A DNA stretch of 64,000 nucleotides from Dehalococcoidia bacterium (GCA_030615625.1 JAUWYX010000002.1:11995-75994), one strand, 5' to 3'. Shown: positions 4,485 through 53,806, counted from the first letter of the stretch. Numbers and translations: made by a program. The notes: generated by a model from the letters alone, not told the origin.

Positions 4485-4527
4485 ATAGCGAAACCGACCT
4501 TAAAGGTTAGTTTCGCTTTTGTGTTTA
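4485..4527 (+). terminator. Hairpin plus U-tract in the leader immediately upstream of the regulator gene (possible attenuator)
   Basis: AGCGAAAC..ACCTT-AAGGT..GTTTCGCT extended stem followed by TTTTGTGTTT, ending about 10 nt before the ATG at 4537. About 400 bp of untranslated leader precedes it. Confidence 0.3.
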
Positions 4528-4536
4528 GTGAAAGGG

Positions 4537-5247
4537 ATGAAAGTTCTGGTTGTTAGCCATTCGCAAGACTTATCGCAAGCTATTTCCCCTATCCTGAGAG
4601 TAAGATGGCCAGACTTAAGTTTAGTCCATGTCAACCAAGCCACGGAAAGCCTGGAGCTGATACATAGAGAACAGCCAGACATCGTTATGTTTTACCTCCC
4701 TGAGCGAAGCGAAGGAGCACCACCCCTGAACTGCTTTGACCTCATAAGCCGGATTCGCAGCTTCTCCGGTGTGCCCCTCATTGTTATTAGCCAGAGCGAT
4801 GATATCATGGACAAGGTAAAAGCTCTGGAGATGGGTGCCGATGACTGGGTGTCCCCATCTTTCAGCCCCATGGAGTTTATTGCCAAGGTCAATGCTATTC
4901 TCCGCCGCCGCTCCCCCCATAAGCCTGGTGTTTCCTTTTTCCTGAATGGCAAGCTATCTATAAATTACGACGCTCGCCAAGTACGCATCTCGGGAAAGCC
5001 AGTGAAGCTAACCCCTATTCAATATAAACTCCTTTGTCATTTAATCAAGAACCAGGGAAGGGTATGCAGCGCCGCCGAGTTGCTCCAGCATATCTGGGGG
5101 CCGAACTATAGTGATGAGAGAGAACTCCTGAAGCTGAGTGTTTATCGTTTGAGGTCTAAAATCGAGGAAAACCCCTCGGCCCCAGAAATCATTTTCAATG
5201 AAAGAGGCATAGGCTACGTCATTAGGGCCTCCAGTTCGAGTGGGTAG
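4537..5247 (+). CDS. OmpR/PhoB-family winged-helix regulator with aspartate-less (pseudo-)receiver domain
   Basis: C-terminal trans_reg_C domain (LTPIQYKLLCHLIKNQGRVCSAAELL...YRLRSKIE). The receiver fold is present but the acidic pocket is degenerate: VVSHSQD instead of DD, DIVMFYLPE puts Tyr at the phospho-Asp position, and DWVSPSF has Ser at the conserved Lys. Start chosen at MKVLVV with an AAGGGA SD; the ORF track starts 18 nt earlier. Confidence 0.7.
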   Translation: MKVLVVSHSQDLSQAISPILRVRWPDLSLVHVNQATESLELIHREQPDIVMFYLPERSEGAPPLNCFDLISRIRSFSGVPLIVISQSDDIMDKVKALEMGADDWVSPSFSPMEFIAKVNAILRRRSPHKPGVSFFLNGKLSINYDARQVRISGKPVKLTPIQYKLLCHLIKNQGRVCSAAELLQHIWGPNYSDERELLKLSVYRLRSKIEENPSAPEIIFNERGIGYVIRASSSSG

Positions 5248-7723: not shown

Positions 7724-8314
7724 TTGAGTATAATGAAAAAGAGAAGAAACAGGTTTTCCCGACTGGGACTGCTGCCCATAGTGCTGCTTTTGGCCCTGTG
7801 TCTCACCGGCGTGGGCTACGGCATGTGGTCGGACGAGGTTTACATCGAGGGCACAATCACCACAGGCACGTGGGATGTGGGCGGCACCATCGGCTTCTGG
7901 AAGAACTGGGACAATCACTATAACGAAGCGGAAATCGTGCCGTGGCTGGTGGCCATTAATTCTAGCTCAGAGTGGCTAGGCCCAACCACGGTGGAGGGAC
8001 TAGATGAACTGTTTGCCGCTGCCACGGGACAGTGTCCCCCTATGAAGAGCAAATTCCTGGTCCACTACATGGCTACCCGCCTGGATATCGCCTCTGGCCG
8101 GCTTGATGTGGGCAATACTCATGACGTTACCGGATGGGATGAAGATAACTATCTCGGTCTCCCCAACCCAGCATTGGCAACGCTGTCCGAGATAATTATT
8201 GCCATTGAAGGTAAGTACCCGGCTGAACCTGAAGACCCCGCAGCCTGGCCCACAACGGAGCAGTACGAGACAATGAAGGATATCTGTGACGCTTTGAACA
8301 ATTTGTGGATCTAG
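7724..8314 (+). CDS. Secreted protein with SipW-cognate class signal peptide, paralog 2
   Basis: LLLALCLTGVGYGMWSDEVYIEGTITTG has the same signal architecture. Divergent mature region. Confidence 0.55.
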   Translation: MSIMKKRRNRFSRLGLLPIVLLLALCLTGVGYGMWSDEVYIEGTITTGTWDVGGTIGFWKNWDNHYNEAEIVPWLVAINSSSEWLGPTTVEGLDELFAAATGQCPPMKSKFLVHYMATRLDIASGRLDVGNTHDVTGWDEDNYLGLPNPALATLSEIIIAIEGKYPAEPEDPAAWPTTEQYETMKDICDALNNLWI

Positions 8315-8375: not shown

Positions 8376-9023
8376 ATGACAAGAAAAAGAGTGATAGCGA
8401 AAGGCAACCTGGGCAGGCTGGGCATGTTGTCTCTGGCGCTGGTGGTGGCGCTGGCGGGGATGGGTGTGGGCTATGCCCAAATGCAGGGCGGCCTGCAGAG
8501 CAATGGCCAGGTGCTGACCGACTGCGCCTTCACCTGGGTGGTCTCCAACGACGATGGCGAGGTGACTAACATATCTCCTTATGGAGACATTGACCCCGGC
8601 GATGATAGCGGCGGCACCAGCTATGACAGGTGGGATGCCCAGAGCAGCGACGACCCCTCGAAAGCGCAGGAAATGGGAATTCCCTGCGCCAGGTATGATA
8701 AAGACGTGGCGCGAACCACCGTCCAGATGTCGGATGGCCAGCGGATAATCACCGTGCTGGTAGAAAACGCCTACCCGTGCTATTACCCGACGGTATTCTT
8801 CGGGCTGAAAAATACGCAGAGTTTTTCTGTCAAAATTAAGAGTATTGATATTAGTTACGACATGCCAGAGCTCACCGTCACGTTTGACGGGATAACTGAA
8901 AATCAGGTGCTCTCCACTGGCGAGGAGGTCATCGGTAGACTGGGAATTCACACTGAGCAGTCTGCTCATCAGAACTCAACCTATAATGTTGAGGTGAAGG
9001 TAGTGCTGGTTCAGAAAGAATGA
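8376..9023 (+). CDS. Secreted protein with SipW-cognate-like signal peptide, paralog 3
   Basis: LALVVALAGMGVGYAQMQGGLQSNGQV: same positional pattern, with WSD degenerated to MQG. Conserved ENAYPCYYPTVFFGL block aligned to paralog 1 LGYPCYWGSVLWDV. Confidence 0.55.
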   Translation: MTRKRVIAKGNLGRLGMLSLALVVALAGMGVGYAQMQGGLQSNGQVLTDCAFTWVVSNDDGEVTNISPYGDIDPGDDSGGTSYDRWDAQSSDDPSKAQEMGIPCARYDKDVARTTVQMSDGQRIITVLVENAYPCYYPTVFFGLKNTQSFSVKIKSIDISYDMPELTVTFDGITENQVLSTGEEVIGRLGIHTEQSAHQNSTYNVEVKVVLVQKE

Positions 9024-12673: not shown

Positions 12674-13615
12674 TCATTCAACTACAATGTAGCGGTCCTC
12701 CCCTGTCCCCAAGCCATGCCTCAAAGCTGTCCTGACCTGGGGTAACTGCCAGGGGTCCGCCACGAGCTTGTTATTGGCCTCATAAGCCAAGAGCACTTTA
12801 ATCGCTTCGACATCAATAGCCACAAGGTCCCCGGAAGCAAGCACCACTTCAGGCTCCGCCAACTGGCCCTTGGCAGGACCACCTGAAACGAAGGCCTTTC
12901 TGCCATCCATGATTATGAGATTTGGTTGCCAGCACAGGCTGATTTCCGCAATCTTTTGCTCCAAGTGGCGAGCGTGAAGAGCACGCCGTTCGCCAGGGTG
13001 CACAAAGCCTACCGCAAGCTTCAGCGCCCCCGAAAATCGTGCCAAAATATGGGTTTTCAGGCAGGGCAGGTATACTATCTTGTCAGCTTCATAGGCTGAG
13101 CGTGGCATGGAAACAGAGCTCAGATAGTCCCCATTAACCTTGACCCTTACCCAATCATCAGGTTTATCATCGAAAGCAATGAGCTCCACCCCCAGATCAC
13201 GCGCTAACTCAAAAATACCCAGTTTCCTGAACACTTTGCTGGTGGGTCTCCATATCCCACCGGAGCTTTCGCCTATTGTAACTTTTGCTCCCGCTTCCAG
13301 GAGGAGTTCGACTACGGCGCGCAGAAACACCAGGTCGGTAGAGCCAGGATACGGGTCCTGGCTGTTAAAATTTGGCTTAAGCAGAACCCTGTCGCCCTTG
13401 TCTATAACCGGCTCCAGGGAACCCAGCAGTGCGATGGCCCTATCAATAGCAGCCTTGATGTCTCCACCTGCCTTCACCTTAGCCACCAGAGCCTGGCCAT
13501 TTCTGAGCCAGGGGTTGGCAGGGCGAGGCCTGGGGTCAACAAGCGGAATATCCCTGGGCGCCCTATCAGTGAGGAAGTGATAAACCCCGGCAATCTTATC
13601 TCCAAAATCCGTCAT
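12674..13615 (-). CDS. DUF362-family protein (inserted between mfd and an orphan mfd 3' copy)
   Basis: LLKPNFNSQDPYPGSTDLVFLRAVVE and the C-terminal block resemble the DUF362 fold. Start set at ATG 13615 with an AAGGAGG SD; the ORF track extends to 13657. Confidence 0.55.
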   Translation of the reverse strand: MTDFGDKIAGVYHFLTDRAPRDIPLVDPRPRPANPWLRNGQALVAKVKAGGDIKAAIDRAIALLGSLEPVIDKGDRVLLKPNFNSQDPYPGSTDLVFLRAVVELLLEAGAKVTIGESSGGIWRPTSKVFRKLGIFELARDLGVELIAFDDKPDDWVRVKVNGDYLSSVSMPRSAYEADKIVYLPCLKTHILARFSGALKLAVGFVHPGERRALHARHLEQKIAEISLCWQPNLIIMDGRKAFVSGGPAKGQLAEPEVVLASGDLVAIDVEAIKVLLAYEANNKLVADPWQLPQVRTALRHGLGTGEDRYIVVE

Positions 13616-13706
13616 TTGTGTTCCTCCTTGCGAACGGCAACTCTTAAGTCCTGCCATGCTCGTAACAAGTTTTTGGTTTTCAAATATTTGTGCATTTCAG
13701 CAACCT

Positions 13707-37364: not shown

Positions 37365-38567
37365 GTGTGGGAACAGATTAGGTCTAATCAAATAAGGTCG
37401 GTAGTGCTGACAATAGGCATGGGAGCATTACTGATCCTTATCGGCTATTTCCTGGGCCTGTACTTCTTTGATAGTGCTATTGTGGGTTTGGTCATTGCCA
37501 TATTAGTATGGGCAGTCCTGAGTTTAATCGGCTATTTCCAGAGTGATAGTATCCTGCTTAGGATGTCGAGGGCGAAGAAAATTAAGCGTGATGACCACCC
37601 TCGCCTATACAATGTGGTTGAGGAAATGAAGATTGCCTCCGGCCTGGAGAAAATGCCCGACATATACATCATTGATGACCCGGCACTAAATGCCTTCGCC
37701 ACTGGTCGTGACCCCAAGCGGGCATCCGTAGCTATCACATCGGGACTGCTACAAAAATTAAACCGCGATGAGTTACAAGGGGTCATCGCCCACGAAATAT
37801 CACACGTCAAGAACCGGGATGTGCTGCTTATGTCAATGTGTAGTATCCTGCTCGGTACTATCGTTATCCTGGCCTGGTATGGGTCACGCATTATGATTTT
37901 TGGCAGCATGACCGGGTCAAGAAGAAGCTCCTCATCAGGTGGGGGTGGGCAGGCTCAGATAATAATTCTGGTCGTGTCACTCGTATTTATGATACTGGCG
38001 CCGATTATGGCGCAGCTCATTTACTTTGCCATCTCTCGGAAGAGAGAGTACCTGGCAGATGCCTCGGCAGCCCTCTACACCAGGTACCCTGAAGGACTGG
38101 CATCAGCCCTGAAAAAGCTGGGTACCTCAACCGGGCAGCTAAAATCAGCCAATAAGGCCACAGCCCCTATGTATATCGTCAATCCCTTCCGCAAGAAAGG
38201 CATGAAAGCCAGTGACCTCTCCAGCACCCACCCCCCTATATCAGAGAGGATACGCATTCTACGTGCCATGGCTGGCGCCTCTTTTAACGATTATGACCAG
38301 GCTTACAGCAAGGTTCACGGAGGTAAGGGAGTTATGCCCGCTGCCAGCATTGCCGCCGGAACAGTCCCATTAGCAACGGTAAAGCTAGAGGGTGGAGCGG
38401 GTGAACCAAACGAGATACAGCGGGCTCGTGAGACCTCAGATGTAATGTGGCGGCTGAGTAACTATAACACCATTACATGTGACTGCGGTGCCAAGTTACG
38501 AGTGCCACCTAAGTTCAAAGAGCCAGTAATCAAGTGCCCGCATTGTGGTAGAACGCATCAGGTTTGA
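37365..38567 (+). CDS. M48-family zinc metalloprotease (HtpX-like) with C-terminal zinc-ribbon extension
   Basis: AHEISHV (HExxH), multiple TMs, C-terminal CDCGAKLR...CPHCG. GTG start. LemA plus M48 is a recurrent gene pair. Confidence 0.7.
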   Translation: MWEQIRSNQIRSVVLTIGMGALLILIGYFLGLYFFDSAIVGLVIAILVWAVLSLIGYFQSDSILLRMSRAKKIKRDDHPRLYNVVEEMKIASGLEKMPDIYIIDDPALNAFATGRDPKRASVAITSGLLQKLNRDELQGVIAHEISHVKNRDVLLMSMCSILLGTIVILAWYGSRIMIFGSMTGSRRSSSSGGGGQAQIIILVVSLVFMILAPIMAQLIYFAISRKREYLADASAALYTRYPEGLASALKKLGTSTGQLKSANKATAPMYIVNPFRKKGMKASDLSSTHPPISERIRILRAMAGASFNDYDQAYSKVHGGKGVMPAASIAAGTVPLATVKLEGGAGEPNEIQRARETSDVMWRLSNYNTITCDCGAKLRVPPKFKEPVIKCPHCGRTHQV

Positions 38568-38689
38568 GAAGATTGATTATTGTTACCCAAATCTCTTCCT
38601 GTACCATCGGTAACTTCAGCACCTATGGTGATGCCGGTTGGGACTTCTTCCAGAATCCTTTGTTAAGCTATCTCAGCTACACAAAATGA

Positions 38690-38915
38690 CGAACTGTTGA
38701 GGCAGGACATAGTGCTTAAAAGGACTCTTAATTTGGTTTTGGGGTTCGCACTTTTACAAGCCCGCTTCTTTTCTCAGGATTTTGGCCTTGTCCGTTCTCT
38801 CCCAGGGCAGGTCGAGGTCTTCCCTGCCAAAATGCCCATAAGTGGCGGTTTGGCGGTAAATGGGGCGTCGCAGGTCCAAAGTCTTTATGATAGCCTCAGG
38901 GCGAAAGTCGCCCTC
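38690..38915 (-). pseudogene. Orphan diverged duplicate of the metK 3' end (last ~55 codons plus ~60 nt downstream)
   Basis: About 220 nt at about 85% identity to 41535-41755 (TGTT.AGGCAGGACATA.TGCT.A.AGGACTCTT.A.TTGGTTTTGG...CCTCAGGGCGAAAGTCG). Confidence 0.6.
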
Positions 38916-38917
38916 TA

Positions 38918-39610
38918 TCAGAAGGTGCTCTTTTTAACTTTTCTCAAGATTAACCATGGAATGGCTAGCGCAATGCCTATGGGGATGAGCAATCGGGCTG
39001 CGACGATAACCCTCTCTTTCGCTACCACCGATGCTATTTCCCTTATCGCCATATTGACTTCCACCACACTAGAGGATGGGTTGGCAATTACGGCCATGAT
39101 GTCAAGGGCATCCGCTGGAAACAACTCGTGGGAAAACGTGCTGCTCGGAGGCGGGTCCCACAAGATAATCTCGGGGTGTGCTTGCAGGCCCTTGTCTAAA
39201 ACGACCACGTTCCACAGCATACTCTGAGTTTGGGGATCGTCTAAATTAGGAAGTGTCTGTTCAGGATACGCCTCGTGGAAAAAAATCAGCGGCATGGCGT
39301 AGAACTCAATAAATATCTCATCTAAATCAGGATATGTCTCCTTAAGCAATGTTCTCCAGTTATCGAGTTCAACTGGGCTTACTCCGAGGAGATAAACATG
39401 GACGTTATCGGTAGACTCCACCGAGATTTGCAATCCAGTTTGAGGCGAGTAAACCCTTAACTCCCTAATCATATATTGTTCAGGCTCGATAGGCTGAATC
39501 CACCCAGATTGGGATCCAGCACCTGAGGGAATGAGAGAGAAGACAAGGAGAGCTAAGCCGATCATCAAAATTACCGCGCCTATTCTTCCGAGAAGAGTTA
39601 TCCACCTCAT
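38918..39610 (-). CDS. Membrane protein of unknown function (third gene of the ABC operon)
   Basis: Start [24 protein letters not shown] with a GGAGAT SD and ATGA overlap with the permease stop. C-terminal TM. Confidence 0.5.
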
Positions 39611-40416
39611 ATCTCCAACCTCCTCTCGAAATAGACGTACCCAACGACGAAAAGCGCAGCCACAATCAGGTATCCAGCCCCCAGGTAAAGGAGGACCTCG
39701 GAAAAGCTTGGAACCCAAGTTTCAGAGGCAAAACCTACTGCGCCCATATGGTAATAATATGTCTGGAGAGCTGAATTAGGGTTGATTACAGCCCAAATTT
39801 TTAGTAGCACATCGGAGCCTGTTCCGTAAGCGGTGAAGGTCACCAATCCAGAGACTACCAACCCCGCAAAGAAAAGAACGACTCCGATGATGAGGGCGAG
39901 TCCCCCTCGTTTCAGCCGTAAAGTCAAAAGCAGCACGAGACCAGCCAGCAAAAGTGCTGGGCTACAGAGCTGAGCAGCATAGGTCAAGAAAACCGTGCTG
40001 GGATAGGTGAGAATGACATCCGGGGCTAACAGAAAGAGACCAAAAATCTGGATTCCCAAGAATAAGAGCAACGCTATGCCTAAACCTGAGAGAAGTTTTG
40101 CCGTGAGAATGTATCGCCTCTTCAAAGGATATGAGAACAGGGTTTGCATCACACCTTTCTCCAAATCGCCACCCAGACCGTAAGCCACATTCTTTAGAAT
40201 TAAGATCACAAAGATGAACAAAAGCGGAAATCCACATAAAGTGCTAACCAAGTTGTACGCGAGGGCTTCTTTAATCTGGCCGCTATATGCTCCTAAATTC
40301 GCGAAGACAAATGTCCCCAGTGCGAAAAGGAAAGCAAAAATCTCCAGGATCGGGAACCTGTAATCTTCATCGAGGGCATAAGTGAAGATTTCTAAGAATG
40401 GTCGGCCTTTTCCCAT
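39607..40416 (-). CDS. ABC-2 family transporter permease
   Basis: 269 aa, about 6 TM. Translationally coupled to both flanking genes. Confidence 0.65.
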   Translation of the reverse strand: MGKGRPFLEIFTYALDEDYRFPILEIFAFLFALGTFVFANLGAYSGQIKEALAYNLVSTLCGFPLLFIFVILILKNVAYGLGGDLEKGVMQTLFSYPLKRRYILTAKLLSGLGIALLLFLGIQIFGLFLLAPDVILTYPSTVFLTYAAQLCSPALLLAGLVLLLTLRLKRGGLALIIGVVLFFAGLVVSGLVTFTAYGTGSDVLLKIWAVINPNSALQTYYYHMGAVGFASETWVPSFSEVLLYLGAGYLIVAALFVVGYVYFERRLEI

Positions 40417-41345
40417 CTACGATCTTCTCCTTGTCCGGACTTGACAGCGAGCCTGAAAAGCTCTTCAAGGGAAGCGGTTCCGGTCTCTATTCCCACAATT
40501 TTAGCCTCTGCTTCCTTAGCAAGTCTGGGAGCATCTTCGAAAAGCCTTGCATCTTCGCCGGCAGGCACGCCTACAGAAACTCCCCTGCTATCTACCTCCA
40601 CCCGGTTAACATATTCCAGTTTTCTTATCGATTCTCCAAGCGCCTCAGGATTATCAGTAGATATCCTCGTAGTTCTGGCTCCAAGCTTCTCCGAAAGTTC
40701 CGTCAAACCTCCCGCGGCCCAAACTTTCCCCTGATTGATTATCGCCACGGATTCACAAACCCTGCTCAGCTCAGGAAGTACATGCGAGGAGATGAGAAAA
40801 GTTACATTTTTGTCGCGACGAAGCTGCAGGATTAAATCTAACAACTCTCTCCTGGCCTCAGGGTCAAGGTTTGATGTAGGTTCATCAGCGATGATGAGAC
40901 GTGGCTCTTTGATCAGGGCATGGGCTACGGCGAATTTTTGGAGCATCCCGGCCGACAATGCCTTTATGGTTCTGTCATGGGCATCCTCAAGCCTCGTCAA
41001 AGCTAAAACTTCACGGGCTCGGGATTCAGGTTTGCCAAAGATCCTGCACACTCTCTTCAGGTAGTCGAATACCTTATGATGGGATGGGAAGTAGGCTCTT
41101 TCATAGATTACTCCTATCTTCGGCTTGATATCCGGGTTGTCCCATGGTTCCTCGTCAAAAACCCTCACAAACCCTCTATTCGGCTTAAGCAAGCCTAAGA
41201 TTATCTTTATTGTGGTGGTTTTTCCAGCGCCGTTGGGACCTATAAGTCCCATAATGCTGCCCTCCTCCACCCTCAGAGAGAGCCCATCCACAGCAACCAC
41301 CCTCCCATAACTCTTGGCTAAATCATCCACCTGTATCAAACTCAT
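40392..41345 (-). CDS. ABC transporter ATP-binding protein
   Basis: Walker A GPNGAGKTT, signature LSAGMLQK, Walker B LIIADEPTSNLD. Start at MSLIQVDDL (AAGGTGA SD) rather than ORF-track 41366. Confidence 0.75.
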   Translation of the reverse strand: MSLIQVDDLAKSYGRVVAVDGLSLRVEEGSIMGLIGPNGAGKTTTIKIILGLLKPNRGFVRVFDEEPWDNPDIKPKIGVIYERAYFPSHHKVFDYLKRVCRIFGKPESRAREVLALTRLEDAHDRTIKALSAGMLQKFAVAHALIKEPRLIIADEPTSNLDPEARRELLDLILQLRRDKNVTFLISSHVLPELSRVCESVAIINQGKVWAAGGLTELSEKLGARTTRISTDNPEALGESIRKLEYVNRVEVDSRGVSVGVPAGEDARLFEDAPRLAKEAEAKIVGIETGTASLEELFRLAVKSGQGEDRRWEKADHS

Positions 41346-41598
41346 GCGACTCACCTTGCCAAACACAAAAACACAAAGTCCGCCTACGAGCAGTTAAGAT
41401 AGGGGCACACTATAACAGCTTTGTTCACACTGGTTCACCCCTTGATTATTCAGGTGCCCACTGAGGTTCTAAGTTAACTTCTTAATTATAGCACAATATG
41501 CTGAAATATAGGTAAGCCTGGAAATGCACAAGTAATGAATTGTTAAGGCAGGACATAATGCTAAGAGGACTCTTGACTTGGTTTTGGAATTCGGCCTT

Positions 41599-42810
41599 TT
41601 ACAAGCCGGCTTCTTTTCTTAGAATTTCGGCCTTATCCGTCCTCTCCCAGGACAGGTTGAGGTCTTCCCTGCCAAAGTGCCCGTAAGTAGCAGTTTGGCG
41701 GTAAATGGGGCGGCGCAGGTCCAAAGTCCTTATGATAGCCTCAGGGCGAAAGTCGAAATGCTTGTTTATGAGATTTAATATGATTTCATCAGAGACTTTT
41801 CCCGTGCTGGATGTCTCGATGGATAATGACAGGGGATGGGCTTTCCCGATAGCATAGGCAACCTGAAGCTCAAGGTAATCAGCAAGTCCGGCAGCCACTA
41901 TATTCTTGACGACATATCTGGCCATATAAGAGGCGGAGCGGTCTACCTTGGTGGGGTCCTTGCCTGAAAAGCAGCCCCCACCATGCCCACAGGCACTGCC
42001 ATAAGTATCAGCAATGATTTTGCGCCCGGTAAAACCGGTGTCGCTCACCGGCCCGCCAATGACAAACTGACCGGCGCTGTTAATGTAGTATTCAGTCTCA
42101 CTATCCAGCAAATTGGCGGGAATGACCTTCTTAATCACTTGCTCTATAAGGTCGTGCTCGATGATTTTACGTTCCACCCCCGGGTCGTGATGAGCACCAA
42201 GAACAACACAGACCACCCTCTTGGGTATGCCATGACTATACTCTATGGTTACCTGAGCTTTGCCATCGGGCCTGAGATAAGGCACGACCCCCTCTTTTCT
42301 TACCTGAGCCAGGCTCCGGCATAGCTTGTGTGCCAGTGTAATAGGCAAAGGCATGAGCTCAGGAGTTTCTCTACAGGCAAAGCCAACCATCATTCCCTGG
42401 TCACCAGCACCAGTTTTGTCTAAAACTTCGTCAGTTGCCTCTCCTATTCTTGTTTCTAAAGATTGACCAACCCCGGCAGCAATGTCGCTTGACTGCTCCT
42501 TCACTGAGACGAGGACTCCACAGGTCCGATAATCAAAGCCATATTCGGGTTTGGTATAGCCTGCCTCTTTGATTACCTGGCGTACCAGGTTGGGAATTTC
42601 CACATAGCAATCACAGGTAATCTCACCGAGAACCATCACCATGCCCATGGCCACAGAGACTTCGCAGGCTACCCGAGCGAAGGGGTCCTGTGCCAGCATG
42701 GCATCAAGGACAGCGTCTGAAATCTGGTCGCATAGCTTATCAGGATGTCCCTCGGTGACGCACTCCGCAGTGGCTAAATAAGAATCCGACTGATTGAAGC
42801 TATTCGGCAT
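41599..42810 (-). CDS. metK: S-adenosylmethionine synthetase
   Basis: [35 protein letters not shown]. Confidence 0.9.
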
Positions 42811-46315: not shown

Positions 46316-46336
46316 TCTACGCCTCCTGTACAGCTC

Positions 46337-46469
46337 GACATCGTCGCATTAGATTATAACTGCTCAAATTCTCCTTGTCATTGCGTCCCCTAATTTGACC
46401 GTCTCCCCTAGCTAATGCTAAACTATTTTCGGGCAGCGTAGCTCAGGGGTAGAGCAGAGGACTCATAAT
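46337..46469 (+). repeat. Direct repeat DR1: copy of the tRNA(CAU) upstream region plus tRNA 5' half (through the anticodon)
   Basis: 133 bp, about 98% identical to 53638-53771. 46433-46469 = GGCAGCGTAGCTCAGGGGTAGAGCAGAGGACTCATAA. Identity ends exactly after CATAA in the anticodon loop. Confidence 0.8.
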
Positions 46470-46748
46470 TCTAAGCTAGATGTCCCAAATGGTCCCTTTA
46501 CCTATAAAATAGAGCCTTTGTGTCAATTACCAAAACCCCGTTTTGCTCGTGAAGTCCCGTTATGTCCCAACCCATCCCAAACAATTTAACGCCAAAATAA
46601 CGCCAATTTTTCAGGTATGGCCTGAAGCTAACGGAACGACAATAGCGATAATACCATAGCAATAAAAACAACAATGATGATAACAACGATAATATCTAAA
46701 TGTGATATGAAATTTTCGGCTAGGGATTGACGTAGCGCTAAGTTTTAC

Positions 46749-49700
46749 CTATTTCTTTCTTGAAAGGCCCTTCAGTTCTTTCTCAGCTTTTTCCACCCAC
46801 CCGGCGGCTCCGCATTCTTTGAAGATTTCTATTGCTTGTTTGAGGTTTTCTTTTGCTTTTGGTGTATTGCCTTTGCGTTTGAACAACCCGGCATATGCAG
46901 TATAGTCCTTTCCCAGATGAAACATCATGCCATTTCTCTTGTCCGCTTCGATGGCCTTCTTGACCCAATCCTCCGCCTCGGATATGTGCTTTTCATCGAT
47001 ATTCAACAGAATCTCCCCTATATATCTTGGCATCCAACCATCATAAATTCTCCAATTGTTCTCGGCCTCGTAGCGATACAACGCCTCTAAATCAACGTCC
47101 ATCTCATTGTTTATTACCCTTGTCCGTGCCGAAGCTATTTTGCACATATTCAAGGAAGAGGGAAAAAGTCTATTTTGTTCGAGCCGCGAAATTGCTTTTT
47201 TATAACAATCCTGGGATCTCTCATATTCGCCCATATCAAAGTAGGTATCGCCCAACCATAAATATCCCAGAGAGAACACTGAAGGTAAATCGATACCCTC
47301 AGCAAAATCAATTCCCTTCAAGAGATGCTCTTCAGCCCGTTCCAGAAATCCCTTGCAATAGCAAGAGTAACCATGGAAAGTGTACCCACATGCTCTTGAA
47401 TAGATATCACCACTCTCTTCGGCTAGCCGCAGGGCCTCATCGCTGGTCTGATAACCTAGGCCAATCCTTCCCTGAAAATCATAGACAAAAGCACTTAGCA
47501 TGCTTTTCTGCACTGATATGCCCCAAAGGCTGTTTCCCGCCACATTAATCTGCAGTGTTTTTTCCATATGGTAAAGGGCTCTTTCATATTTGCAACTCCA
47601 AGACAGCGCAAGTCCCAGCCAGAAGTTTGCCTGTGCTAACGAAAGTATATCGCTTAGCTCCTCTGCCATCTTTAGAGCATCCTCCAGATATTTGAAGGCC
47701 TTGGGAAAATCCTCCTCCGCGTGATACCAGTAGGAGCCCATTATGGTGTATATCTGAGATACCCTCCTCTTGTAGCCAAGCTCCAGAGCTAAATCAACTA
47801 TCGGGTCAACAGCCTCTTTTGCCTCAAAAGGATGACCCATTTGAATGTGATAGAGTCCAACAGCCGTCCGGGCAGCTACTATCTTCCGCTGTACATCCTC
47901 CGTCTGAGGTAACTTGTCAAGGCAGTCTATCCTTTTCTCACTGTATGCAATCGCATCGTTAAATGCCCCTGCCCTCTCAGCTTTCCTTCCCACCAGCCGG
48001 CAGTACTCAGCCCCCTTCTCGTAGCTCTCACCTGCGATATAGTGCTCAGCCAGTACTGCATAATGCTGATCTAGATTATCTTTATAGACCTCCTCAATGG
48101 CATCGCCTATGTCCAGGTGAAGCTTCTTCCTCCTTTTGGTCATTATCGAATCATAGACCACCTCGCGGGTCAGGGCATGCTTGAAGATATAGGTCGATTG
48201 GGGATATATCCCTCTTTCATAGAGAAGCTCTGCATCCCTTAAGGCTGACAGGTGGGACAGCAACTCCTGTTCTGATATGCCAGTCACCCGCTTCATCAAC
48301 TCGTAGCTGAACTCTCTCTCAATCGCAGAGCCCGTCTTAAGCACGCCCTTGGCCGCTTCGGGCAACGAATCAACCCTGGCCATGATGACATCTTGAATCG
48401 TACCCGGTATGGTTACATCATTAACATCTCTGGTTAGAAAATATCCACTATCCTTCCTCTCGATTATCTCAAGGTCTTTGAGGGACTTCATAAACTCCTC
48501 GATGAAAAAGGGGATCCCCTCCGTCTTCTGCAAGATCAACTCCTCAAGGTCCCCCGCTATTTCCTCCGTACCCAGGAGATGAGCTACCATCGCCAGGCTC
48601 TCGCGGTTGGAAAGCCGGTTCAAGGTTACCTGGCTGTGATAGGACCTGCCGCCCCAGGTGTGCACGAACTCAGGACGGTAAGTAAATATCAAGAAAACCC
48701 GTGACCCCGATATGGTATCCAGCCAATACTTCAAGGTATCCTCGGTGCTCCTATCAGTCCAGTGGAGGTCCTCAATAGCCATTATCAAGGGCCGTAGCTC
48801 TGCACCCTTCAGGATAACTCGCTTTACTGCCTCGAGAATCCGATCTTTCCTGGCTTCCGGGCTCATGGATATGTTGTCTATTCCGCTGTCCTTGACCGAT
48901 AGCAGCTCCAGAAGATAGGGCAGGGTGTTGGCCTCGTCTGCACCTAATAGCTTCAATCCCTCTTTCACCCTATCCCTGACCCGGTAGTCCTCGTCACTTT
49001 CCCTGATATCAAAGTTTGACTTCAAGAGGTCTATGACTGGATGATAGGCCACGCCCCTGCTGTATGAGAGGCACCTGCCCTCCAAAAAAGTAGCATCCTC
49101 GTTGGCTATGGCCTTTCTGAACTCATACAGCAGCCTGGACTTGCCCACGCCGGCCTCGCCCATGATGGAGAAGGCCTGGCCCCTGCCTGCCTTAGCCCGT
49201 TCGAAGCCATCCAGCAACAGCTCGAGCTCCCTCTCCCGGCCCACAAAGGGGGTCAGGCCCCACTCAGCGCTTACGTCAAACCTCGCCCTTCTGGTGCTGG
49301 TGGCGATCACCCGGTAGGCCTTGACCGGCGCCTCCTTCCCCTTGACCTGCCTCTCCCCCAAGGCCTCAAAGCGGAAAAGGCCCTCGGTGACCTTGAAGGT
49401 CTCCTCGGTAACATAGGTGGTGCCCGGCTCCGCTAGATCTTCCATCCTGGATGCCAGGTTCACCGTATCCCCCATTGCTGTGAACTCCACCCGCAGATCA
49501 TTTCCCAGGCTGCCGACCACAACGGGGCCGGTGTTAATGCCAATCCGTATCTTTATCGGGTCTATCCCGCTTTCGCTCTTTAGACGATTACTAAACCTGG
49601 TCATCTCCCGCTGGATGGCCAGAGCGGAGCGAATGGCCCGCTGGGGGGCATGCTCGAGGGCTCTGGGGGCCCCAAACAGGGCCATGACGCCGTCGCCGGT

Positions 49701-50126
49701 CATTTTGTTGATAGTGCCACCATAGTCGAGAACTTTATGGATTAGGATCTCAAAGACCTCATCCATGATGGAGTAGATTTTCTCGTGGCCGAGTTTCTCG
49801 GAAAGTGGGGTAAATCCCTTCATGTCACAGAACATAACAGTAACCTGCTTGCGCTCACCTTCGATTTTGTCTCTTTGAGCTAGGATCTTCTCGGTGAGCC
49901 CTCTAGGCAGGTAACGCTGGATCTTCTCCAGTTTCTCGTCAAAAGAGAGGCCTCTGGGAGTCTGTTCGAAGGGAACTGTCAGATCGTGGCCGCACTCACC
50001 ACAAAATCTATCCCTGGGAAGGTTTTCAGAGCCACACTGAGGGCATATCTGCAAAAGCTTTGCACCGCACTCGTGGCAAAACTTCCTCGTCTCAGGATTT
50101 TCCGCTTGGCAATTAGGGCATTTCAT
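46749..50126 (-). CDS. Multidomain STAND-type protein: double zinc ribbon + class III adenylyl/guanylyl cyclase + AAA/NB-ARC-like NTPase + TPR array
   Basis: N-terminus CPNCQ..CHECG..CPQCG..CGECG; cyclase core VTVMFCDMKGFT...GDGVMALFGAP; P-loop GEAGVGKSRL; about 500 aa of TPR-like helical repeats. Confidence 0.8.
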   Translation of the reverse strand: MKCPNCQAENPETRKFCHECGAKLLQICPQCGSENLPRDRFCGECGHDLTVPFEQTPRGLSFDEKLEKIQRYLPRGLTEKILAQRDKIEGERKQVTVMFCDMKGFTPLSEKLGHEKIYSIMDEVFEILIHKVLDYGGTINKMTGDGVMALFGAPRALEHAPQRAIRSALAIQREMTRFSNRLKSESGIDPIKIRIGINTGPVVVGSLGNDLRVEFTAMGDTVNLASRMEDLAEPGTTYVTEETFKVTEGLFRFEALGERQVKGKEAPVKAYRVIATSTRRARFDVSAEWGLTPFVGRERELELLLDGFERAKAGRGQAFSIMGEAGVGKSRLLYEFRKAIANEDATFLEGRCLSYSRGVAYHPVIDLLKSNFDIRESDEDYRVRDRVKEGLKLLGADEANTLPYLLELLSVKDSGIDNISMSPEARKDRILEAVKRVILKGAELRPLIMAIEDLHWTDRSTEDTLKYWLDTISGSRVFLIFTYRPEFVHTWGGRSYHSQVTLNRLSNRESLAMVAHLLGTEEIAGDLEELILQKTEGIPFFIEEFMKSLKDLEIIERKDSGYFLTRDVNDVTIPGTIQDVIMARVDSLPEAAKGVLKTGSAIEREFSYELMKRVTGISEQELLSHLSALRDAELLYERGIYPQSTYIFKHALTREVVYDSIMTKRRKKLHLDIGDAIEEVYKDNLDQHYAVLAEHYIAGESYEKGAEYCRLVGRKAERAGAFNDAIAYSEKRIDCLDKLPQTEDVQRKIVAARTAVGLYHIQMGHPFEAKEAVDPIVDLALELGYKRRVSQIYTIMGSYWYHAEEDFPKAFKYLEDALKMAEELSDILSLAQANFWLGLALSWSCKYERALYHMEKTLQINVAGNSLWGISVQKSMLSAFVYDFQGRIGLGYQTSDEALRLAEESGDIYSRACGYTFHGYSCYCKGFLERAEEHLLKGIDFAEGIDLPSVFSLGYLWLGDTYFDMGEYERSQDCYKKAISRLEQNRLFPSSLNMCKIASARTRVINNEMDVDLEALYRYEAENNWRIYDGWMPRYIGEILLNIDEKHISEAEDWVKKAIEADKRNGMMFHLGKDYTAYAGLFKRKGNTPKAKENLKQAIEIFKECGAAGWVEKAEKELKGLSRKK

Positions 50127-50447
50127 TGTTTATCTCCATAAATCAAAAAGGATTCTTTTAATTGGCTTTCCAATAATTTGATTATACTCCCAAGAAACCT
50201 CAAATAGAATACATCACAAGAGAACAAGATGAGAATAGAAGCAATACATCAAAGATAGAATAGACCACCCATACCAATAAAAACAGCAATGACCGATAAT
50301 GGCAAAAGTTGCTCTCTCAGCGACAACCCTAAAAGAATGAAGGGTTTCCAAAATACCTAAAATTGAATGGAAAATCAAAATTAACAGCCTATGGCGGACG
50401 AAGGGGGGGTGAGGTGAATCACTGGATATACCATTACTAATGGGTGA

Positions 50448-50475
50448 TTGACAGCAAAGAAAACGACGCTATACT
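50448..50475 (+). promoter_or_regulatory. Sigma70-like promoter (TTGACA-16-TATACT) upstream of the DUF4382 gene
   Basis: TTGACAGCAAAGAAAACGACGCTATACT. Confidence 0.35.
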
Positions 50476-50576
50476 GTAATCTGGGAGGGAAGTTCAAATA
50501 CCAATATCTGGATTCCAAGTAATCTCCTACGACCAAAATCCACAAGACTAGACAGTTTTGAATTTCAAAAAAGAGC

Positions 50577-51149
50577 ATGCAAATCAAACCATTCCCTTTA
50601 GTGTTGATTATTCTGGCGGTGCTGACTGTAATAGGATTAGTTTATAAGATTCCGGAACAAGCACTGGGAACAGGAACCTTGAAGCTATACCTTTCCGATG
50701 CGCCGCTAGACGCTGAAGATGTTACAGGTGTTTATATCACTATCAATGAAATTCAATACCACCTAGATAGTCAATGGATAACGTGCGAAGAATTTAAAGG
50801 CCCTCAAATATATAACTTATTGGAATTAACCGACGGAAATTCCGCTTTGTTGGGTGAGTTGACATTACCTGCCGGGAATTACAATCAAATTCGCTTTATA
50901 CTGGATATTCCAGAAAAGGGCTCATATCCGGCAAATCCAGGCTGCTATATTGAATTTGCTGATAACTTCACTGCGCCTCTCTTCGTACCGAGTGGTGGAG
51001 ACACAGGGTATAAAGCGATAGGCTACTTCGAAGTACCTGTTAATGGAACTGTGGAGGTTACTGCAGATTTTGATGTTCGTAAAGCTGTGGTTGTAGCTGG
51101 TTCTTCGTACATCCTAAAGCCAACAATCAAGCTGATAGTCAACTACTAA
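50577..51149 (+). CDS. DUF4382-like secreted/lipoprotein
   Basis: Signal/TM then GTGTLKLYLSDAP...NYNQIRFIL pattern resembling DUF4382. Confidence 0.45.
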   Translation: MQIKPFPLVLIILAVLTVIGLVYKIPEQALGTGTLKLYLSDAPLDAEDVTGVYITINEIQYHLDSQWITCEEFKGPQIYNLLELTDGNSALLGELTLPAGNYNQIRFILDIPEKGSYPANPGCYIEFADNFTAPLFVPSGGDTGYKAIGYFEVPVNGTVEVTADFDVRKAVVVAGSSYILKPTIKLIVNY

Positions 51150-51524
51150 GCTGGAAGCATCCGTGGCTTACTCAACTGTAACCTAAAGTTTGGATTTTGT
51201 CTGATTTGGTTTCAGGTATTTTAGCGTGTTTTTAAGTGCTTTTATTCCCTTTAACTGAAGCTAATAAATCTTTTTCTTAAAGTTAAAATGAGGAGTAAAT
51301 TGTGCGGGCCTGGTGATAAGAGCGGGCACCATCGCCCAAACCAAAGGGCACACCCCTTCTTGATATTAGGATACCTGTCTCTGACTTATTTGAATTTTCA
51401 GAGTAATCAAAGGGGTTATCAGGTTCCTGAAGGCTTTCGGAATCCTGAGAAAACACACTTCTACATCTGTGTTAATAGAGTTTAATATGTGAATAGCTGG
51501 CTAGCAAAGATGGTTCTGCTTATT

Positions 51525-51959
51525 TCATTCATACCCGAGCTTCGGTGAAAGTGGGACGGCACTTCGCATGTAGGTTCCACTTCCCCAGGCAATTTCTCGA
51601 CTATCTGAATCAACCAACTTTGATTGTGCGATAAATAGGCGCTGTGAACGGTGAATAACCTGCCCAATCGCCTTTATCTTCCCCTGTGAAATAGGACGAG
51701 TAAGATATATGTTGAAGGAGACGGTTAAGACGAAGACGTCATTCACCAGCGAGTTCACTGCAAAAAAGGCAGCGTCATCGAGAGCCTTAAAATATACCGA
51801 CCCATGCACAGTACCGGCTGAGTGAAAAAAATCTTGGCGCACAACGATAATCACCTCCGCATACCCTTCATCCACGCAAATTGTCGGCATATAATACCTA
51901 TTTGTTGGCGCAAATGCATACATGTGCTCTAGCCTTCGGTAATGTTCTTCTTTGTTCAT
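51525..51959 (-). CDS. PaaI/4HBT-family hotdog thioesterase
   Basis: FFHSAGTVHGSVYFKALDDAA core. Confidence 0.6.
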   Translation of the reverse strand: MNKEEHYRRLEHMYAFAPTNRYYMPTICVDEGYAEVIIVVRQDFFHSAGTVHGSVYFKALDDAAFFAVNSLVNDVFVLTVSFNIYLTRPISQGKIKAIGQVIHRSQRLFIAQSKLVDSDSREIAWGSGTYMRSAVPLSPKLGYE

Positions 51960-52549
51960 CTTCCAGCTATCTTCCCTATCTCATTATCATTATATGGCCT
52001 TTTTGCCTCATATGGAAGAGTTACAAAGCTAGAAGTCGCTTTGATGGATTTATTCCATTTATTCAGTCCTAAAAAAAAGGGGATTTATCGAGTTTCTCAA
52101 GTCTATAAAAAAGGGGAAACAAAGCTGAAATGTCCAAAAAGTTTAATTCCTTGAGTCCATAAAAAAGGGCCTATGGCGATGCAACTGCAGACACTAAAGA
52201 TAAGATAGACCACCATAGCAATAGAATCAAGGCGCTAATAGCAACGACAATATCCTTCCAGAAGTGAAAAACGAAAATCTAACCTAGCTTTGGAATATAT
52301 CGTTTTTATTGGTGAAATATGATGCTTTTATTATGGTCTTATGGGTAAAGATGGCTTGCACCCCAAAGCTAAATAAAAGGATATGTTGTGATAATTGAAG
52401 CTAAAATGAGGGGGGAAATTGTGTTGAGGGAAATTGTTAGACGATTATTCCCCGGTGTCAAGCAAATCTTTGAGTAGAGTTTAGTTTATAGCGATTCGTT
52501 AGTGTCTCTTCAGGGGGCGTGTTTAATGTGGCATGGTCACAATACAACA

Positions 52550-53158: not shown

Positions 53159-53393
53159 CTATATATCCTTCAAGTTTTATTGTATCACTAGCGAAGGAAG
53201 TGTCAATACGCCTCTCCACTCTGCTACCTCATATATGCCGTCTTCACCCGAAATAGAAGAATTCCAAAGCTAGAAGTCGTTTTTGATGGATTTATTCAGT
53301 TTTTTCAGTCCTAAAAAAAGGAAAACAGGGCTAATACCAACGATGATATAATCGTACTTCTACCCATAAGGGTGGAGATATGGGGAAAGTTCA

Positions 53394-53637
53394 ATTCAGG
53401 TCCCAGCCGCCGACATTACACTTCCCGTAATCGTTCCATCCCACGGCGACCACGGTGCCGTCGGACTTAAGCCCCACTGTGTGCTCAATGCTTGCGGCGA
53501 CCTGGATGATGTCTGACCAGCTACCGACATCGCACTGCCCGTAGAGATTGTCTCCCACGGCGACCACCGTGCCGTCGGACCTAAGCCCTACCGTGTGATA
53601 CCCTCCTGCGGCGACCTCGGTAATGTCTGTCCAGCCG

Positions 53638-53650: not shown

Positions 53651-53806
<156 letters not shown>

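Follow-up and report, generated by a model that had tools for sequence, protein, structure and literature searches.

How did a three-gene transporter operon come to lie between an intact metK gene and a displaced copy of that gene's own 3' end, and what has become of the repeat since? This question is raised by a stretch of 64,000 nucleotides from a Dehalococcoidia bacterium (GCA_030615625.1, JAUWYX010000002.1:11995-75994), referred to here as the window, whose relevant features are collected in Table 1. The displaced copy is called the orphan.

Table 1. Features of the metK locus, in window coordinates.
Feature	Position	Strand	Basis or remark
htpX-like M48 peptidase, conserved convergent downstream neighbour	37365..38567	+	PF01435
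Intergenic stretch, orphan to convergent htpX	38568..38683	.	
Orphan repeat copy (O), non-coding metK relic	38684..38910	-	repeat finder, alignment, BLAST
Orphan, trailer part	38684-38753	-	
Orphan, stop codon	38754-38756	-	
Orphan, metK codons 352-403	38757-38910	-	
Operon/orphan junction, TAGAGGG/CGACTTT	38911..38917	-	same in all short-form loci
Third operon gene, 230-aa membrane protein, fast-evolving	38918..39610	-	no assigned family
Polytopic membrane protein, 269 aa, probably ABC-2-type permease	39607..40416	-	weak ABC2_membrane_2 match
ABC transporter ATPase, 317 aa from conserved Met	40392..41345	-	PF00005, E 3e-27
ABC ATPase ORF from alternative start GTG 41366	40392..41366	-	
Operon promoter and 5' leader	41346..41529	-	conservation across operon-bearing loci
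Small hairpin and U-tract directly before the Shine-Dalgarno sequence	41380-41393	-	
Extended -10 element TGCTATAAT	41485-41493	-	
Gene-proximal repeat copy (M): last 52 metK codons, stop codon, ~70-nt trailer	41530..41755	-	repeat finder, alignment, BLAST
metK trailer (flank70)	41530-41598	-	within copy M
metK (S-adenosylmethionine synthetase), intact, 403 aa	41599..42810	-	all three S-AdoMet synthetase Pfam domains

The repeat pair and the genes between its copies

A BLAST search with the orphan region against the whole window paired 38684-38910 with 41530-41755 at 88.6% identity (E 5e-78; 220 nt aligned, 24 mismatches, one gap), and chance matches of the same region elsewhere in the window did not exceed 14 nt. 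The repeat finder resolved the pair into a main block of 194 nt (38717-38910 against 41562-41755, 89%) and an adjoining block (38684-38716 against 41530-41562, 82%), so that what is repeated comprises the last 52 metK codons, the stop codon and a trailer of about 70 nt. The duplication of the metK 3' end reported in the first-pass annotation is real, with coordinates that were off by about 5 nt and an identity of 88-89% rather than about 85%. The metK protein shares 80-91% amino acid identity with its orthologues in Dehalococcoidia MAGs. Its trailer is also kept 3' of metK in four operon-less relatives (L001, L004, L006, L007); it is not a dispersed repeat, and folding reveals no significant structure in it.

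Three genes lie between the copies, all in metK orientation and served by a promoter of their own. Every operon-bearing locus, with or without metK next to it, retains the promoter and leader, for which Rfam gave no match at E<=10. The distal end of the gene-proximal repeat copy coincides with the start of this promoter (TTGTGCAT...). The ATPase, which retains 90-95% amino acid identity across related loci, has its best NCBIfam match in the DrrA subfamily (TIGR01188), at 193 bits and below the 312-bit cut-off. The product of the second gene covers most of the ABC2_membrane_2 profile with an E value of 0.0055, likewise below the cut-off, and has no Pfam match at E<=1e-3; its identity as an ABC-2 permease is plausible from sequence rather than established. 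Measured against a DrrAB-like ABC-2 exporter, the ATPase domain is clear, but both subfamily matches fall short of their cut-offs. For the third gene, the true start is Met37 of the ORF, from which point the homologue P0001 is 100% identical. None of 175 homologues carries a Pfam domain, and the AF2 model is poor (pLDDT 61), with one helix at each terminus as in a two-helix membrane protein. Its identity is 0.838 at codon positions 1 and 2 versus 0.808 at position 3, which amounts to nearly equal divergence. The ATPase and permease genes overlap by 25 nt and the permease and third genes by 4 nt, overlaps consistent with translational coupling.

A non-coding copy in the allele pool of metK

The orphan could have been exapted from the metK 3' end and kept by selection wherever the operon goes, either as a small protein of about 39-41 aa (the MetK C-terminus, read from a TTG start) or as a regulatory or terminator RNA. 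An intact 41-aa ORF is present in the window (38754..38879), the distal part of the orphan is strongly constrained at codon positions 1 and 2, and the orphan accompanies the operon in four loci where metK is not adjacent (L090, L122, L125, L145). However, its frame has been disrupted independently at least five times among about 25 lineages, by +1 shifts in L083/L125 and L101/L107, a -1 shift in L090/L122, an insertion in L098 and a TAG codon in L109, and in four loci with the operon intact (L106, L146, L142, L143) the orphan is truncated or absent. Diversity in its first 45 nt, at 0.144/0.121/0.199 by codon position, is essentially neutral, and whole-orphan pairwise identity (about 0.88) is at the neutral level, for which the four-fold sites of the ATPase served as the yardstick (0.846). 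Its predicted folding energy is no better than that of shuffled sequence (z -0.55 and +0.31), and it has neither an Rfam match nor a terminator-like site. The orphan is non-coding, and we regard a function of its own as very improbable.

The coding-like pattern of the distal part is explained instead by its relationship with metK. Over codons 16-52, diversity by codon position is 0.028/0.039/0.243 in the orphan versus 0.039/0.018/0.230 in metK, the divergence between the two classes is 0.036/0.028/0.234, and no fixed difference separates them. Nearest neighbours are intermixed between orphan and metK, often across genomes: the window orphan is nearest to the metK of L098, and the L098 orphan to the metK of L084. 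Because the alleles are intermixed and lack fixed differences, the constraint is best read as borrowed from metK. Polymorphism distributed over codon positions as in metK, together with nearest relatives in the metK genes of other genomes, further indicates that the orphan keeps exchanging sequence with metK alleles and belongs to the same allele pool. Between the two window copies, dN/dS is 0.15. The trailer is nearer to the copy in the same genome than to others (0.757 vs 0.688, p 0.004); the coding part of the orphan is no closer to its own metK than to those of other genomes (0.906 vs 0.900, n.s.), and this calls for the additional assumption of frequent allele exchange between lineages.

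Loci differ in the state of the orphan's 5' part, which has decayed in some and resembles metK in others; the contrast is seen even between the sister lineages L095 and L109. In the alignment, the first ~60 nt of the window orphan are metK-like, and the 26 nt next to the junction match perfectly. In 26 other loci, this stretch differs by a 2-nt deletion and about 10 substitutions. The perfect block is specific to the window genome; in those 26 loci, no part of the orphan is more decayed than its counterpart. The window orphan was probably converted recently right up to the junction, which would explain why it looks fresh.

A single junction origin and a polymorphic operon

Orphans are present in 43 of 47 distinct related loci, where the operon and the orphan are joined at the same junction; short-form loci do not differ at all in the sequence joined 3' of the third gene. 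A long form, in L092, L096, L138 and L145, has in its place a ~60-nt spacer and ~75 further nt of metK. The comparison sequences are MAG or metagenome contigs throughout, and assembly artefacts could lie behind part of the mosaicism, yet more than 40 independent contigs agree. Neighbour-joining trees of metK and of the ahcY 3' region with metK nt 1-1050, computed without bootstrap from genes that themselves recombine, place all operon-bearing loci in one clade. All outgroups (L002, L004, L006, L007, L009-L014) are operon-less. At the empty sites of L003 and L012, metK is followed by 86 nt and then by convergent htpX, and the ~50 htpX-proximal nt of the window's intergenic stretch align with these sites; in L081, L088 and L113, htpX instead lies 3' of the orphan. 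The empty sites and the lack of the operon in every outgroup bear out the view that the operon is an insertion relative to its relatives. A recent or independent insertion in the window genome is contradicted by the identical junction, which implies a single origin before the clade radiated. The first-pass annotation had also named, together with the lack of a shared junction motif, an ancient, fixed arrangement with both copies under selection as the finding that would overturn it; the arrangement is indeed ancient, but it is not fixed, and the orphan is under no selection of its own.

Presence and absence of the operon alternate in matching contexts. Three operon-less loci, L001, L003 and L005, are nested in the operon clade beside L086/L133, L081/L117 and L116, respectively. 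Directly 3' of metK they carry the sequence that follows the orphan in their operon-bearing neighbours, and along the repeat they switch from the pattern of the proximal copy to that of the orphan copy. Furthermore, orphans precede at least three native downstream contexts, two of which, a short intergenic stretch (L012) and the trailer (L004, L006, L007), also occur directly 3' of metK in outgroups. One insertion that was afterwards inherited only vertically is therefore insufficient to account for them.

These contexts also bear on an origin in situ, by tandem duplication of metK or of metK and the operon, partial deletion of the second copy, and then vertical descent with gene conversion. 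Such an origin would fit the coincidence of the repeat's distal end with the promoter start, as for a unit reaching from inside metK to behind the operon, and the uniform divergence of metK, operon and orphan (position-3 identity 0.81-0.87). Additionally, the same three ORFs occur elsewhere in some genomes without leader or orphan (L142/L143), so the operon could have arrived without carrying a repeat. However, at least two to three events would be needed where insertion-duplication requires one. An in-situ origin alone leaves unexplained both the several native contexts shared with outgroup metK and the orphans nearest to another genome's metK, and recombination between genomes must be added anyway. 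We consider it distinctly unlikely.

The explanation we favour, and judge reasonably probable, is that of a single ancient insertion-duplication. Its repeats would now give rise to gene conversion and precise loss, and probably also to lateral installation, through general recombination. An ABC-2-type exporter operon of three genes, complete with promoter and leader, would have been placed between intact metK and a displaced copy of the metK 3' end, once, in the ancestor of one clade of uncultured Dehalococcoidia. The segment originally duplicated would have measured at least 310 nt (about 80 codons and the 70-nt trailer), and a later deletion of ~115 nt would have trimmed the duplicate to the junction seen in the window. 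The orphan, without a function of its own, would remain a recombination partner of metK because it is still homologous to an essential, conserved gene. Its distal two thirds would be repeatedly overwritten by, or exchanged with, metK 3' ends of the same or related genomes, leaving an orphan that looks coding and is contiguous with the genome's native downstream context. Recombination between the copies would delete the operon precisely, as in at least three lineages if the direction of these events is loss. In the reverse process, a naive genome may acquire the operon on DNA from an operon-bearing relative, metK serving as the left homology arm and the orphan as the right one. Homologous recombination of the general, RecA type would be sufficient for these steps, so no site-specific recombinase is required. 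Against this explanation count the operon loci without metK upstream (L090, L094, L106, L119, L122, L125, L128, L145), which need further rearrangements.

Site-specific integration and related inserts

The same footprint would be left by site-specific integration with an integrase since lost. The locus would then be a decayed integrative element, a CIME or "cis-mobilizable" island. An island with an integrase would have entered the 3' end of metK and, by bringing in a duplicate of the gene end, kept metK intact; the integrase would since have disappeared or would act in trans, with the repeats as attL and attR. The architecture fits, with direct repeats derived from the target 3' end, an intact target, cargo and empty sites (L003 and L012, with L001 and L005 also operon-less), and the longest perfect block in the window, of 26 nt, lies at the gene-internal repeat boundary. 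Dehalococcoides ssrA islands follow the same logic, some of them without integration genes (PMC3146451), and the neighbouring tRNA-Met island resembles classic tRNA integration. However, in agreement with the first-pass annotation's proposal that no recombinase is left behind, none was found in the window or in some 150 related loci. All island genes and selected neighbours were negative in Pfam scans; among 3395 ORFs from 156 loci and the window, phmmer with one tyrosine-integrase seed gave a single weak match, in the unrelated L018, and a crude scan for the serine-recombinase catalytic motif gave none. The sensitivity of this search is limited by the use of Pfam on selected neighbours and of one seed and a crude motif on the rest, within the fetched loci, and another part of the genome may encode an integrase that acts in trans. 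In none of the fetched loci was a cognate ICE or IME found. The cargo is always the same operon, although varied cargo would be expected at a shared att site; the repeat, originally at least 310 nt, is far above the 20-bp ssrA repeat; and crossover points differ among loci instead of marking a fixed position or short conserved core. The 26-nt block is confined to one genome and corresponds to the most decayed part of the orphan elsewhere. The idea that the junctions might share a motif was not borne out, as none is common to the metK, mfd and tRNA-Met repeat pairs. Taken together, we consider a decayed element unlikely.

Two other origins do not fit. A transposon or insertion sequence is at odds with the lack of inverted repeats at the ends and of a transposase domain in the Pfam scans, and with a duplication of 227 nt where a short target-site duplication is expected. 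An integron gene cassette, which would end in an attC site, is at odds with a trailer that shows no significant structure, with the negative integrase searches in the window and related loci, and with three genes under their own promoter.

Similar repeat-bracketed inserts occur in the window at mfd and at tRNA-Met, the latter an island at 46336-53793 with an apparent crossover at the anticodon loop, and repeat-bracketed inserts of a single gene lie 3' of metK in distant Dehalococcoidales (L022, L027, L055). The proposed recurrence of such inserts is in this sense upheld. The mfd case, put forward as the other example of the same pattern, differs in kind: in the relatives L156/L157, mfd is followed by DUF362, without an orphan.

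A bolder reading, possible but doubtful in our view, treats the operon as a recombinase-free, self-targeting cassette with two homology arms, of which the inserts at mfd and tRNA-Met and in L022, L027 and L055 would be further examples. The cassette would carry a copy of a conserved essential gene's 3' end at its far end, so that its left arm is metK and its right arm the orphan. General recombination could then install or remove it in any related genome, whatever lies 3' of metK, and each entry would turn the gene end of the recipient into the new orphan. If true, this mode of gene flow would be common in Dehalococcoidia, a group with few mobile-element enzymes.

Comparison with known systems

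The nearest counterparts within the class are the ssrA-GIs of Dehalococcoides (McMurdie et al. 2011, PMC3146451). Their repeat measures 20 bp, and insertion takes place at one fixed point in the T-loop of the tmRNA; a conserved integration module encodes the serine recombinase DsiB, and the cargo varies and is arranged in tandem arrays. Some of these islands are devoid of integration genes and have been regarded as cis-mobilizable. Like them, the metK locus lies behind a single-copy essential gene, with that gene's 3' end on one side and a direct repeat of this end on the other. Unlike them, it has a repeat of 227 nt (at least 310 nt originally), variable crossovers, no recombinase and one invariant operon. 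Elements of the ICESt1/ICESt3 family integrate at the 3' end of fda in Streptococcus thermophilus, and to count as a CIME, an element must have att sites recognised by the integrase of a cognate ICE or IME. CIMEs and IMEs at protein-gene 3' ends share with the metK locus a cargo held between direct repeats of a housekeeping 3' end, an intact target, and the lack of recombination or transfer genes inside. At the metK locus, however, neither a cognate element nor an integrase was found, and the repeats act as ordinary homology, with gene conversion and variable crossovers.

Campbell-type insertion-duplication, a single-crossover homologous recombination used with non-replicating circular DNA in insertion-duplication mutagenesis, is familiar chiefly from laboratory use or as a route of plasmid integration. 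It produces the same order of target, insert and duplicated target segment without a site-specific enzyme; the repeat is as long as the homology carried, repeats are hybrids of donor and recipient, and the reverse reaction excises the insert precisely. The metK repeats, at 227 nt or at least 310 nt in the long form, agree with this, as do orphans with a cassette-linked 5' part but a 3' part and trailer that correspond to the native context of the locus. The pattern in L001, L003 and L005 is that of the reversal, although whether individual events were losses or gains is inferred. The difference is that a natural chromosomal operon is involved, apparently redistributed across a clade, and that the circular intermediate is hypothetical; we know of no description of a natural chromosomal operon maintained and apparently redistributed in this manner. 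Finally, concerted evolution by gene conversion between a gene and a partial pseudogene copy is a general phenomenon, and the metK orphan likewise is a relic in the allele pool of a functional gene, with conversion tracts that end where homology has decayed, here at the 2-nt deletion and substitutions within the first 45 nt. Unlike in plain concerted evolution, many orphans are nearest to another genome's metK, which argues for exchange between genomes and not just for intrachromosomal conversion.

Repeat pair and cargo operon behind metK

The first-pass annotation had described an ABC-transporter operon behind metK that was flanked by a duplicated metK 3' end, and this duplication was confirmed by a repeat finder, pairwise alignment, and BLAST. 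The displaced copy, hereafter the orphan, consists of the last 52 metK codons, the stop codon, and the trailer that follows it. Homology between the orphan and the proximal copy begins at CGACTTTCG and stops approximately 70 nt past the stop codon. Searched against the whole window, the orphan aligned at 88.6% identity over 220 nt (E 5e-78), with the best chance matches not exceeding 14 nt. Three same-strand genes, overlapping by 25 and 4 nt, separate the two copies. The structure model of the third product was poor (pLDDT 61), a PADLOC search of the cargo returned nothing but generic P-loop matches, and an exact-sequence look-up of the window metK and ATPase found no record.

The operon has a promoter with a conserved extended -10 element, TGCTATAAT, and a leader of approximately 140 nt, at the end of which a small hairpin and a U-tract stand directly before the Shine-Dalgarno sequence. 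All operon-bearing loci keep the promoter and leader, even where the operon is not near metK; neither gave an Rfam match. There may also be a second promoter-like element, and the hairpin may act as an attenuator.

Features of the window and of related loci (window positions unless a locus is named)
Feature	Coordinates	Strand	Remarks
metK	41599..42810	-	all three S-AdoMet synthetase domains
metK repeat, orphan / proximal copy	38717-38910 / 41562-41755	-	194 nt, 89% (repeat finder)
Adjoining repeat segment	38684-38716 / 41530-41562	-	
Operon leader region	41346-41529	-	
Extended -10 element	41485-41493	-	
Leader hairpin and U-tract	41380-41393	-	
First operon gene, ABC ATPase			PF00005; DrrA-like, score below cut-off
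Second operon gene, polytopic membrane protein			weak ABC2_membrane_2 match, E 0.0055
Third operon gene, membrane protein	38918-39610	-	230 aa, no family
mfd repeat pair	12419-12528 / 13709-13818		89%; mfd 3' end, last ~35 codons to stop
DUF362 gene	12674..13657		
Shared 10-mer / its reverse complement	41508-41517 / 13680-13689		distal boundary of metK repeat / just past mfd stop
tRNA-Met repeat pair	46336-46490 / 53639-53793		155-nt direct repeat, ~98% over 135 nt
tRNA-Met	53735-53807	+	
Two tandem 114-nt units	53403-53630		76% identical
Cyclic-di-GMP-II riboswitch	4425-4508	+	RF01786, 61.5 bits
ORF downstream of riboswitch	4519..5247		
51-nt segment, three occurrences	6870-6920, 7772-7822, 8427-8477		
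ORFs with 51-nt segment	6852..7499, 7724..8314, 8376..9023		neighbouring
Repeats behind metK, L022	2178-2359 / 3056-3235		
Repeats behind metK, L027	11208-11287 / 11998-12075		
Repeats behind metK, L055	11136-11210 / 12603-12677		
Three operon ORFs, L142	4250-6684		
Y1 transposase match, L088	2019-2576		weak, IS200-like

Elsewhere in the window, the cyclic-di-GMP-II riboswitch scored above its gathering score, and the three ORFs of ~200-215 aa sharing the 51-nt segment are apparently tandem paralogues.

Operon distribution and orphan forms among relatives

The relatives of metK are uncultured Dehalococcoidia MAGs, the nearest of which is 91% identical at the amino acid level, and the region 3' of metK is highly variable among them. 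In two related loci, L003 and L012, 86 nt separate metK from convergent htpX-lemA-zinc-ribbon genes, which in the window lie on the far side of the orphan. Empty sites, for which the first-pass annotation had proposed a search, therefore exist. The third protein has 175 homologues, and the gene order ahcY-metK-ATPase-permease-third gene is common to the homologue contigs L081, L084, L086/87, and L088, each with a metK-like fragment approximately 10 nt past the third gene.

A metagenome scan yielded 64 further loci. Counting the distinct loci in which the sequence continues for at least 60 nt past the third gene, 43 of 47 carried an orphan. Short forms had a decayed 5' part in 26 loci and a metK-like 5' part in five, the window among them. 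Four loci showed a long form with a ~60-nt spacer and ~75 more nt of metK, eight had truncated or other orphans, and four had none. The junction between operon and orphan, TGATAGAGGG/CGACTTT, is identical across all short forms and hence has a single origin. The long form is probably the ancestral one, with the short form derived from it by a deletion of ~115 nt.

In neighbor-joining trees of metK and of the ahcY 3' end with metK nt 1-1050 (the repeat being left out), the operon-bearing loci formed one clade, and every outgroup was without the operon. Three operon-less loci nest within this clade, and the metK flank of each is exactly the sequence behind the orphan in adjoining operon-bearing loci: L001 shares the RRM-DEAD-BipA-NYN context with L086, L005 the VTT-YkoP-GT2 context with L084/L116, and L003 the direct htpX context with L081. 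Along the repeat, operon-less genomes change from the proximal-copy to the orphan-copy pattern, which would be the product expected of recombination between the copies or of its reverse. The trees and flanks point to one operon gain followed by several losses or gains. At least three downstream contexts are joined to orphans. Outgroups that have never had the operon show two of them immediately 3' of metK, namely the short intergenic region (L012) and the 70-nt trailer (L004, L006, and L007). Had the operon been inserted once and then been inherited vertically, only one context would be expected; at least some events must therefore have paired an orphan with a foreign metK end.

Operon and orphan occur without an upstream metK in eight loci (L090, L094, L106, L119, L122, L125, L128, and L145), half of which have a divergent radical-SAM gene upstream of the operon. 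Their left breakpoints fall at differing distances upstream of the operon promoter, a spacing that suggests ordinary rearrangements sparing the promoter. In L142/L143, the three operon ORFs reside at a different locus, downstream of a SpoIID/InlB-repeat/CAP protein, where the conserved promoter/leader and the metK orphan are both missing. Compared with L138, these ORFs are mostly 70-97% identical in nucleotide sequence per 100-nt block and ~61-65% in places; this locus could be the source or a secondary copy.

Nature and turnover of the orphan

A role for the orphan as a small ORF or RNA element was rejected in view of independent frame disruptions (L083/L125, L090/L122, L098, L101/L107, and L109), a folding energy no better than that of shuffled sequence, and the lack of a match to any Rfam family; a search for a terminator-like site in it also found none. 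The orphan is non-coding. Orphans are 84-90% identical between loci where the third-gene product is only 57-70% identical, which would suggest purifying selection, but this reading did not survive calibration. Identity was 0.846 at ATPase 4-fold sites and 0.81-0.87 at codon position 3 across the locus, compared with ~0.88 for the orphan; the ATPase and position-3 values imply that the lineages are close and that the third gene merely evolves fast. The third gene shows identities of 0.838 (codon positions 1+2) and 0.808 (position 3), and its protein is 57-90% identical between loci (homologues P0001-P0120), beside an ATPase that is 90-95% identical. The gene thus evolves almost neutrally, for which the cause could be selection that is relaxed or diversifying, acting on a protein that has terminal helices and an exposed middle domain.

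The orphan is heterogeneous along its length. Its first 45 nt vary almost equally at the three codon positions (diversity at positions 1/2/3, 0.144/0.121/0.199), which is neutral behavior. Codons 16-52 share the pattern of functional metK (0.028/0.039/0.243 in the orphan and 0.039/0.018/0.230 in metK), and divergence between metK and the orphan over these codons (0.036/0.028/0.234) does not exceed the diversity within either class, with no fixed differences. Nearest neighbors of metK ends and orphans are intermixed, frequently across genomes; that of the window orphan is the L098 metK, at 4.4% divergence. Both window copies are 91-92% identical to L001, and the native copy is not distinguishable by identity to relatives. 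The trailer is closer to the copy in its own genome than to those in others (0.757 vs 0.688, p 0.004); the coding part of the repeat is not (0.906 vs 0.900).

Neutral decay after one duplication cannot yield this pattern, and the distal orphan must therefore have been repeatedly replaced by functional metK ends, including foreign alleles. Such replacement accounts for the dN/dS of 0.15 between the window copies (10 synonymous vs 4 non-synonymous codon differences). It also accounts for a 26-nt perfect block at the window junction, which the conversion tract reached, erasing the decayed 5' part kept in most relatives. An in-situ duplication decaying neutrally is disfavored by this dN/dS and by the alleles shared with foreign metK. 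Tandem duplication followed by deletion, as an account of the founding event, is quite improbable.

Recurrence, mechanism, and known systems

The earlier view that no recombinase had been left behind agrees with our searches, which were partial and covered the window and the related loci. None turned up in Pfam scans, which took in the cargo, the other two repeat-bracketed inserts of the window (at mfd and tRNA-Met), and neighbors in many contexts. A phmmer search with one tyrosine-integrase seed over 3395 ORFs gave only a weak match in the unrelated L018, and a scan for the serine-recombinase catalytic motif found nothing. Among the relatives, the only transposase-like gene found near the locus is the weak Y1 match in L088, between KTI12-like and PHP genes. 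The junction motif for which the first-pass annotation had suggested a search did not emerge: no convincing motif unites the metK, mfd, and tRNA-Met repeat pairs at their twelve junctions. Only one 10-mer, TGTGCATTTC, is shared, in reverse complement, between the metK and mfd junctions, with a roughly estimated chance probability of ~0.1 over all junction pairs. The trailer was also considered as a dispersed repeat or att-like element and rejected, since it occurs solely behind metK and behind the orphan, in at most two copies per locus over 1.5 Mb of sequence.

The mfd orphan lies ~145 nt behind the DUF362 gene; in L156/L157, DUF362 follows mfd and the orphan is absent. Its alignment to the L156 mfd allele extends further upstream than that to the mfd of the window itself, and it therefore seems to derive from a different mfd allele. 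The mfd case is different in kind from the metK case. The tRNA-Met repeat comprises 96 nt of upstream sequence and the 5' half of the tRNA to the anticodon loop. The element thus supplies the 5' half and promoter, the mirror image of usual tRNA integration. Its 7.1-kb insert encodes a 1125-aa adenylate cyclase-AAA-TPR protein, a DUF4382 protein, a thioesterase, and an InlB-repeat protein, with no integrase domain found; in L086 and L088, an intact tRNA-Met adjoins the KTI12-like gene, giving an empty site. The two 114-nt units stand immediately before one copy of this repeat, and their first ~15 nt (CCAGCnnCCGACAT) resemble its beginning. In three distant Dehalococcoidales loci (L022, L027, and L055; metK 67-70% identical in amino acids), a single gene directly behind metK lies between direct repeats (75-182 nt) whose sequence comes from the metK end or its trailer, and no recombinase was found near these inserts.

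Recombinase-less, repeat-bracketed inserts are therefore frequent in this group. This leaves room for the general proposal of recurrent insertion, but nothing points to a dedicated mechanism. The original interpretation is partly supported, for a structure of an ordinary kind with instructive evolutionary behavior.

In its behavior, the locus resembles a naturally occurring Campbell-type insertion-duplication, together with concerted evolution of a gene and its partial copy. Insertion-duplication with general recombination, Campbell-type integration included, is the explanation that we favor as reasonably probable. The operon would enter a naive genome by way of two homology arms, metK on the left and the orphan on the right; alternatively, the region downstream would be replaced rather than the operon installed. 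Both descriptions amount to homologous recombination with variable crossover points. That a self-targeting cassette spreads through general recombination, possibly as a common mode in Dehalococcoidia, is a tentative extension and somewhat doubtful.

An apparently fresh insertion scar from a duplicated gene end can be old and clade-wide. Continuing recombination with the parent gene can keep such repeats looking young, and the identity between them is therefore a poor clock. The locus offers a concrete, testable case in which streamlined, recombinase-poor bacteria could gain or lose an operon at a fixed site by homologous recombination alone. If lateral installation holds, such gene flow could be recognized in metagenomes by the orphan 3' ends that housekeeping genes leave. 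In practical terms, the locus is of modest importance; the processes are already known and the cargo is an uncharacterized exporter.

Within this bacterial class, the closest described counterpart is the family of Dehalococcoides ssrA islands, which have 20-bp repeats, a fixed insertion point in the T-loop, and the DsiB serine integrase (PMC3146451). Site-specific integration at the founding event, with later loss of the enzyme, is an unlikely alternative for metK, where neither an integrase nor a fixed core was found in the loci searched, unlike in the ssrA islands. The metK locus resembles these islands in its target gene, cargo, and gene-end repeat, and some of the islands are themselves integrase-less and described as 'cis-mobilizable' (PMC3146451).
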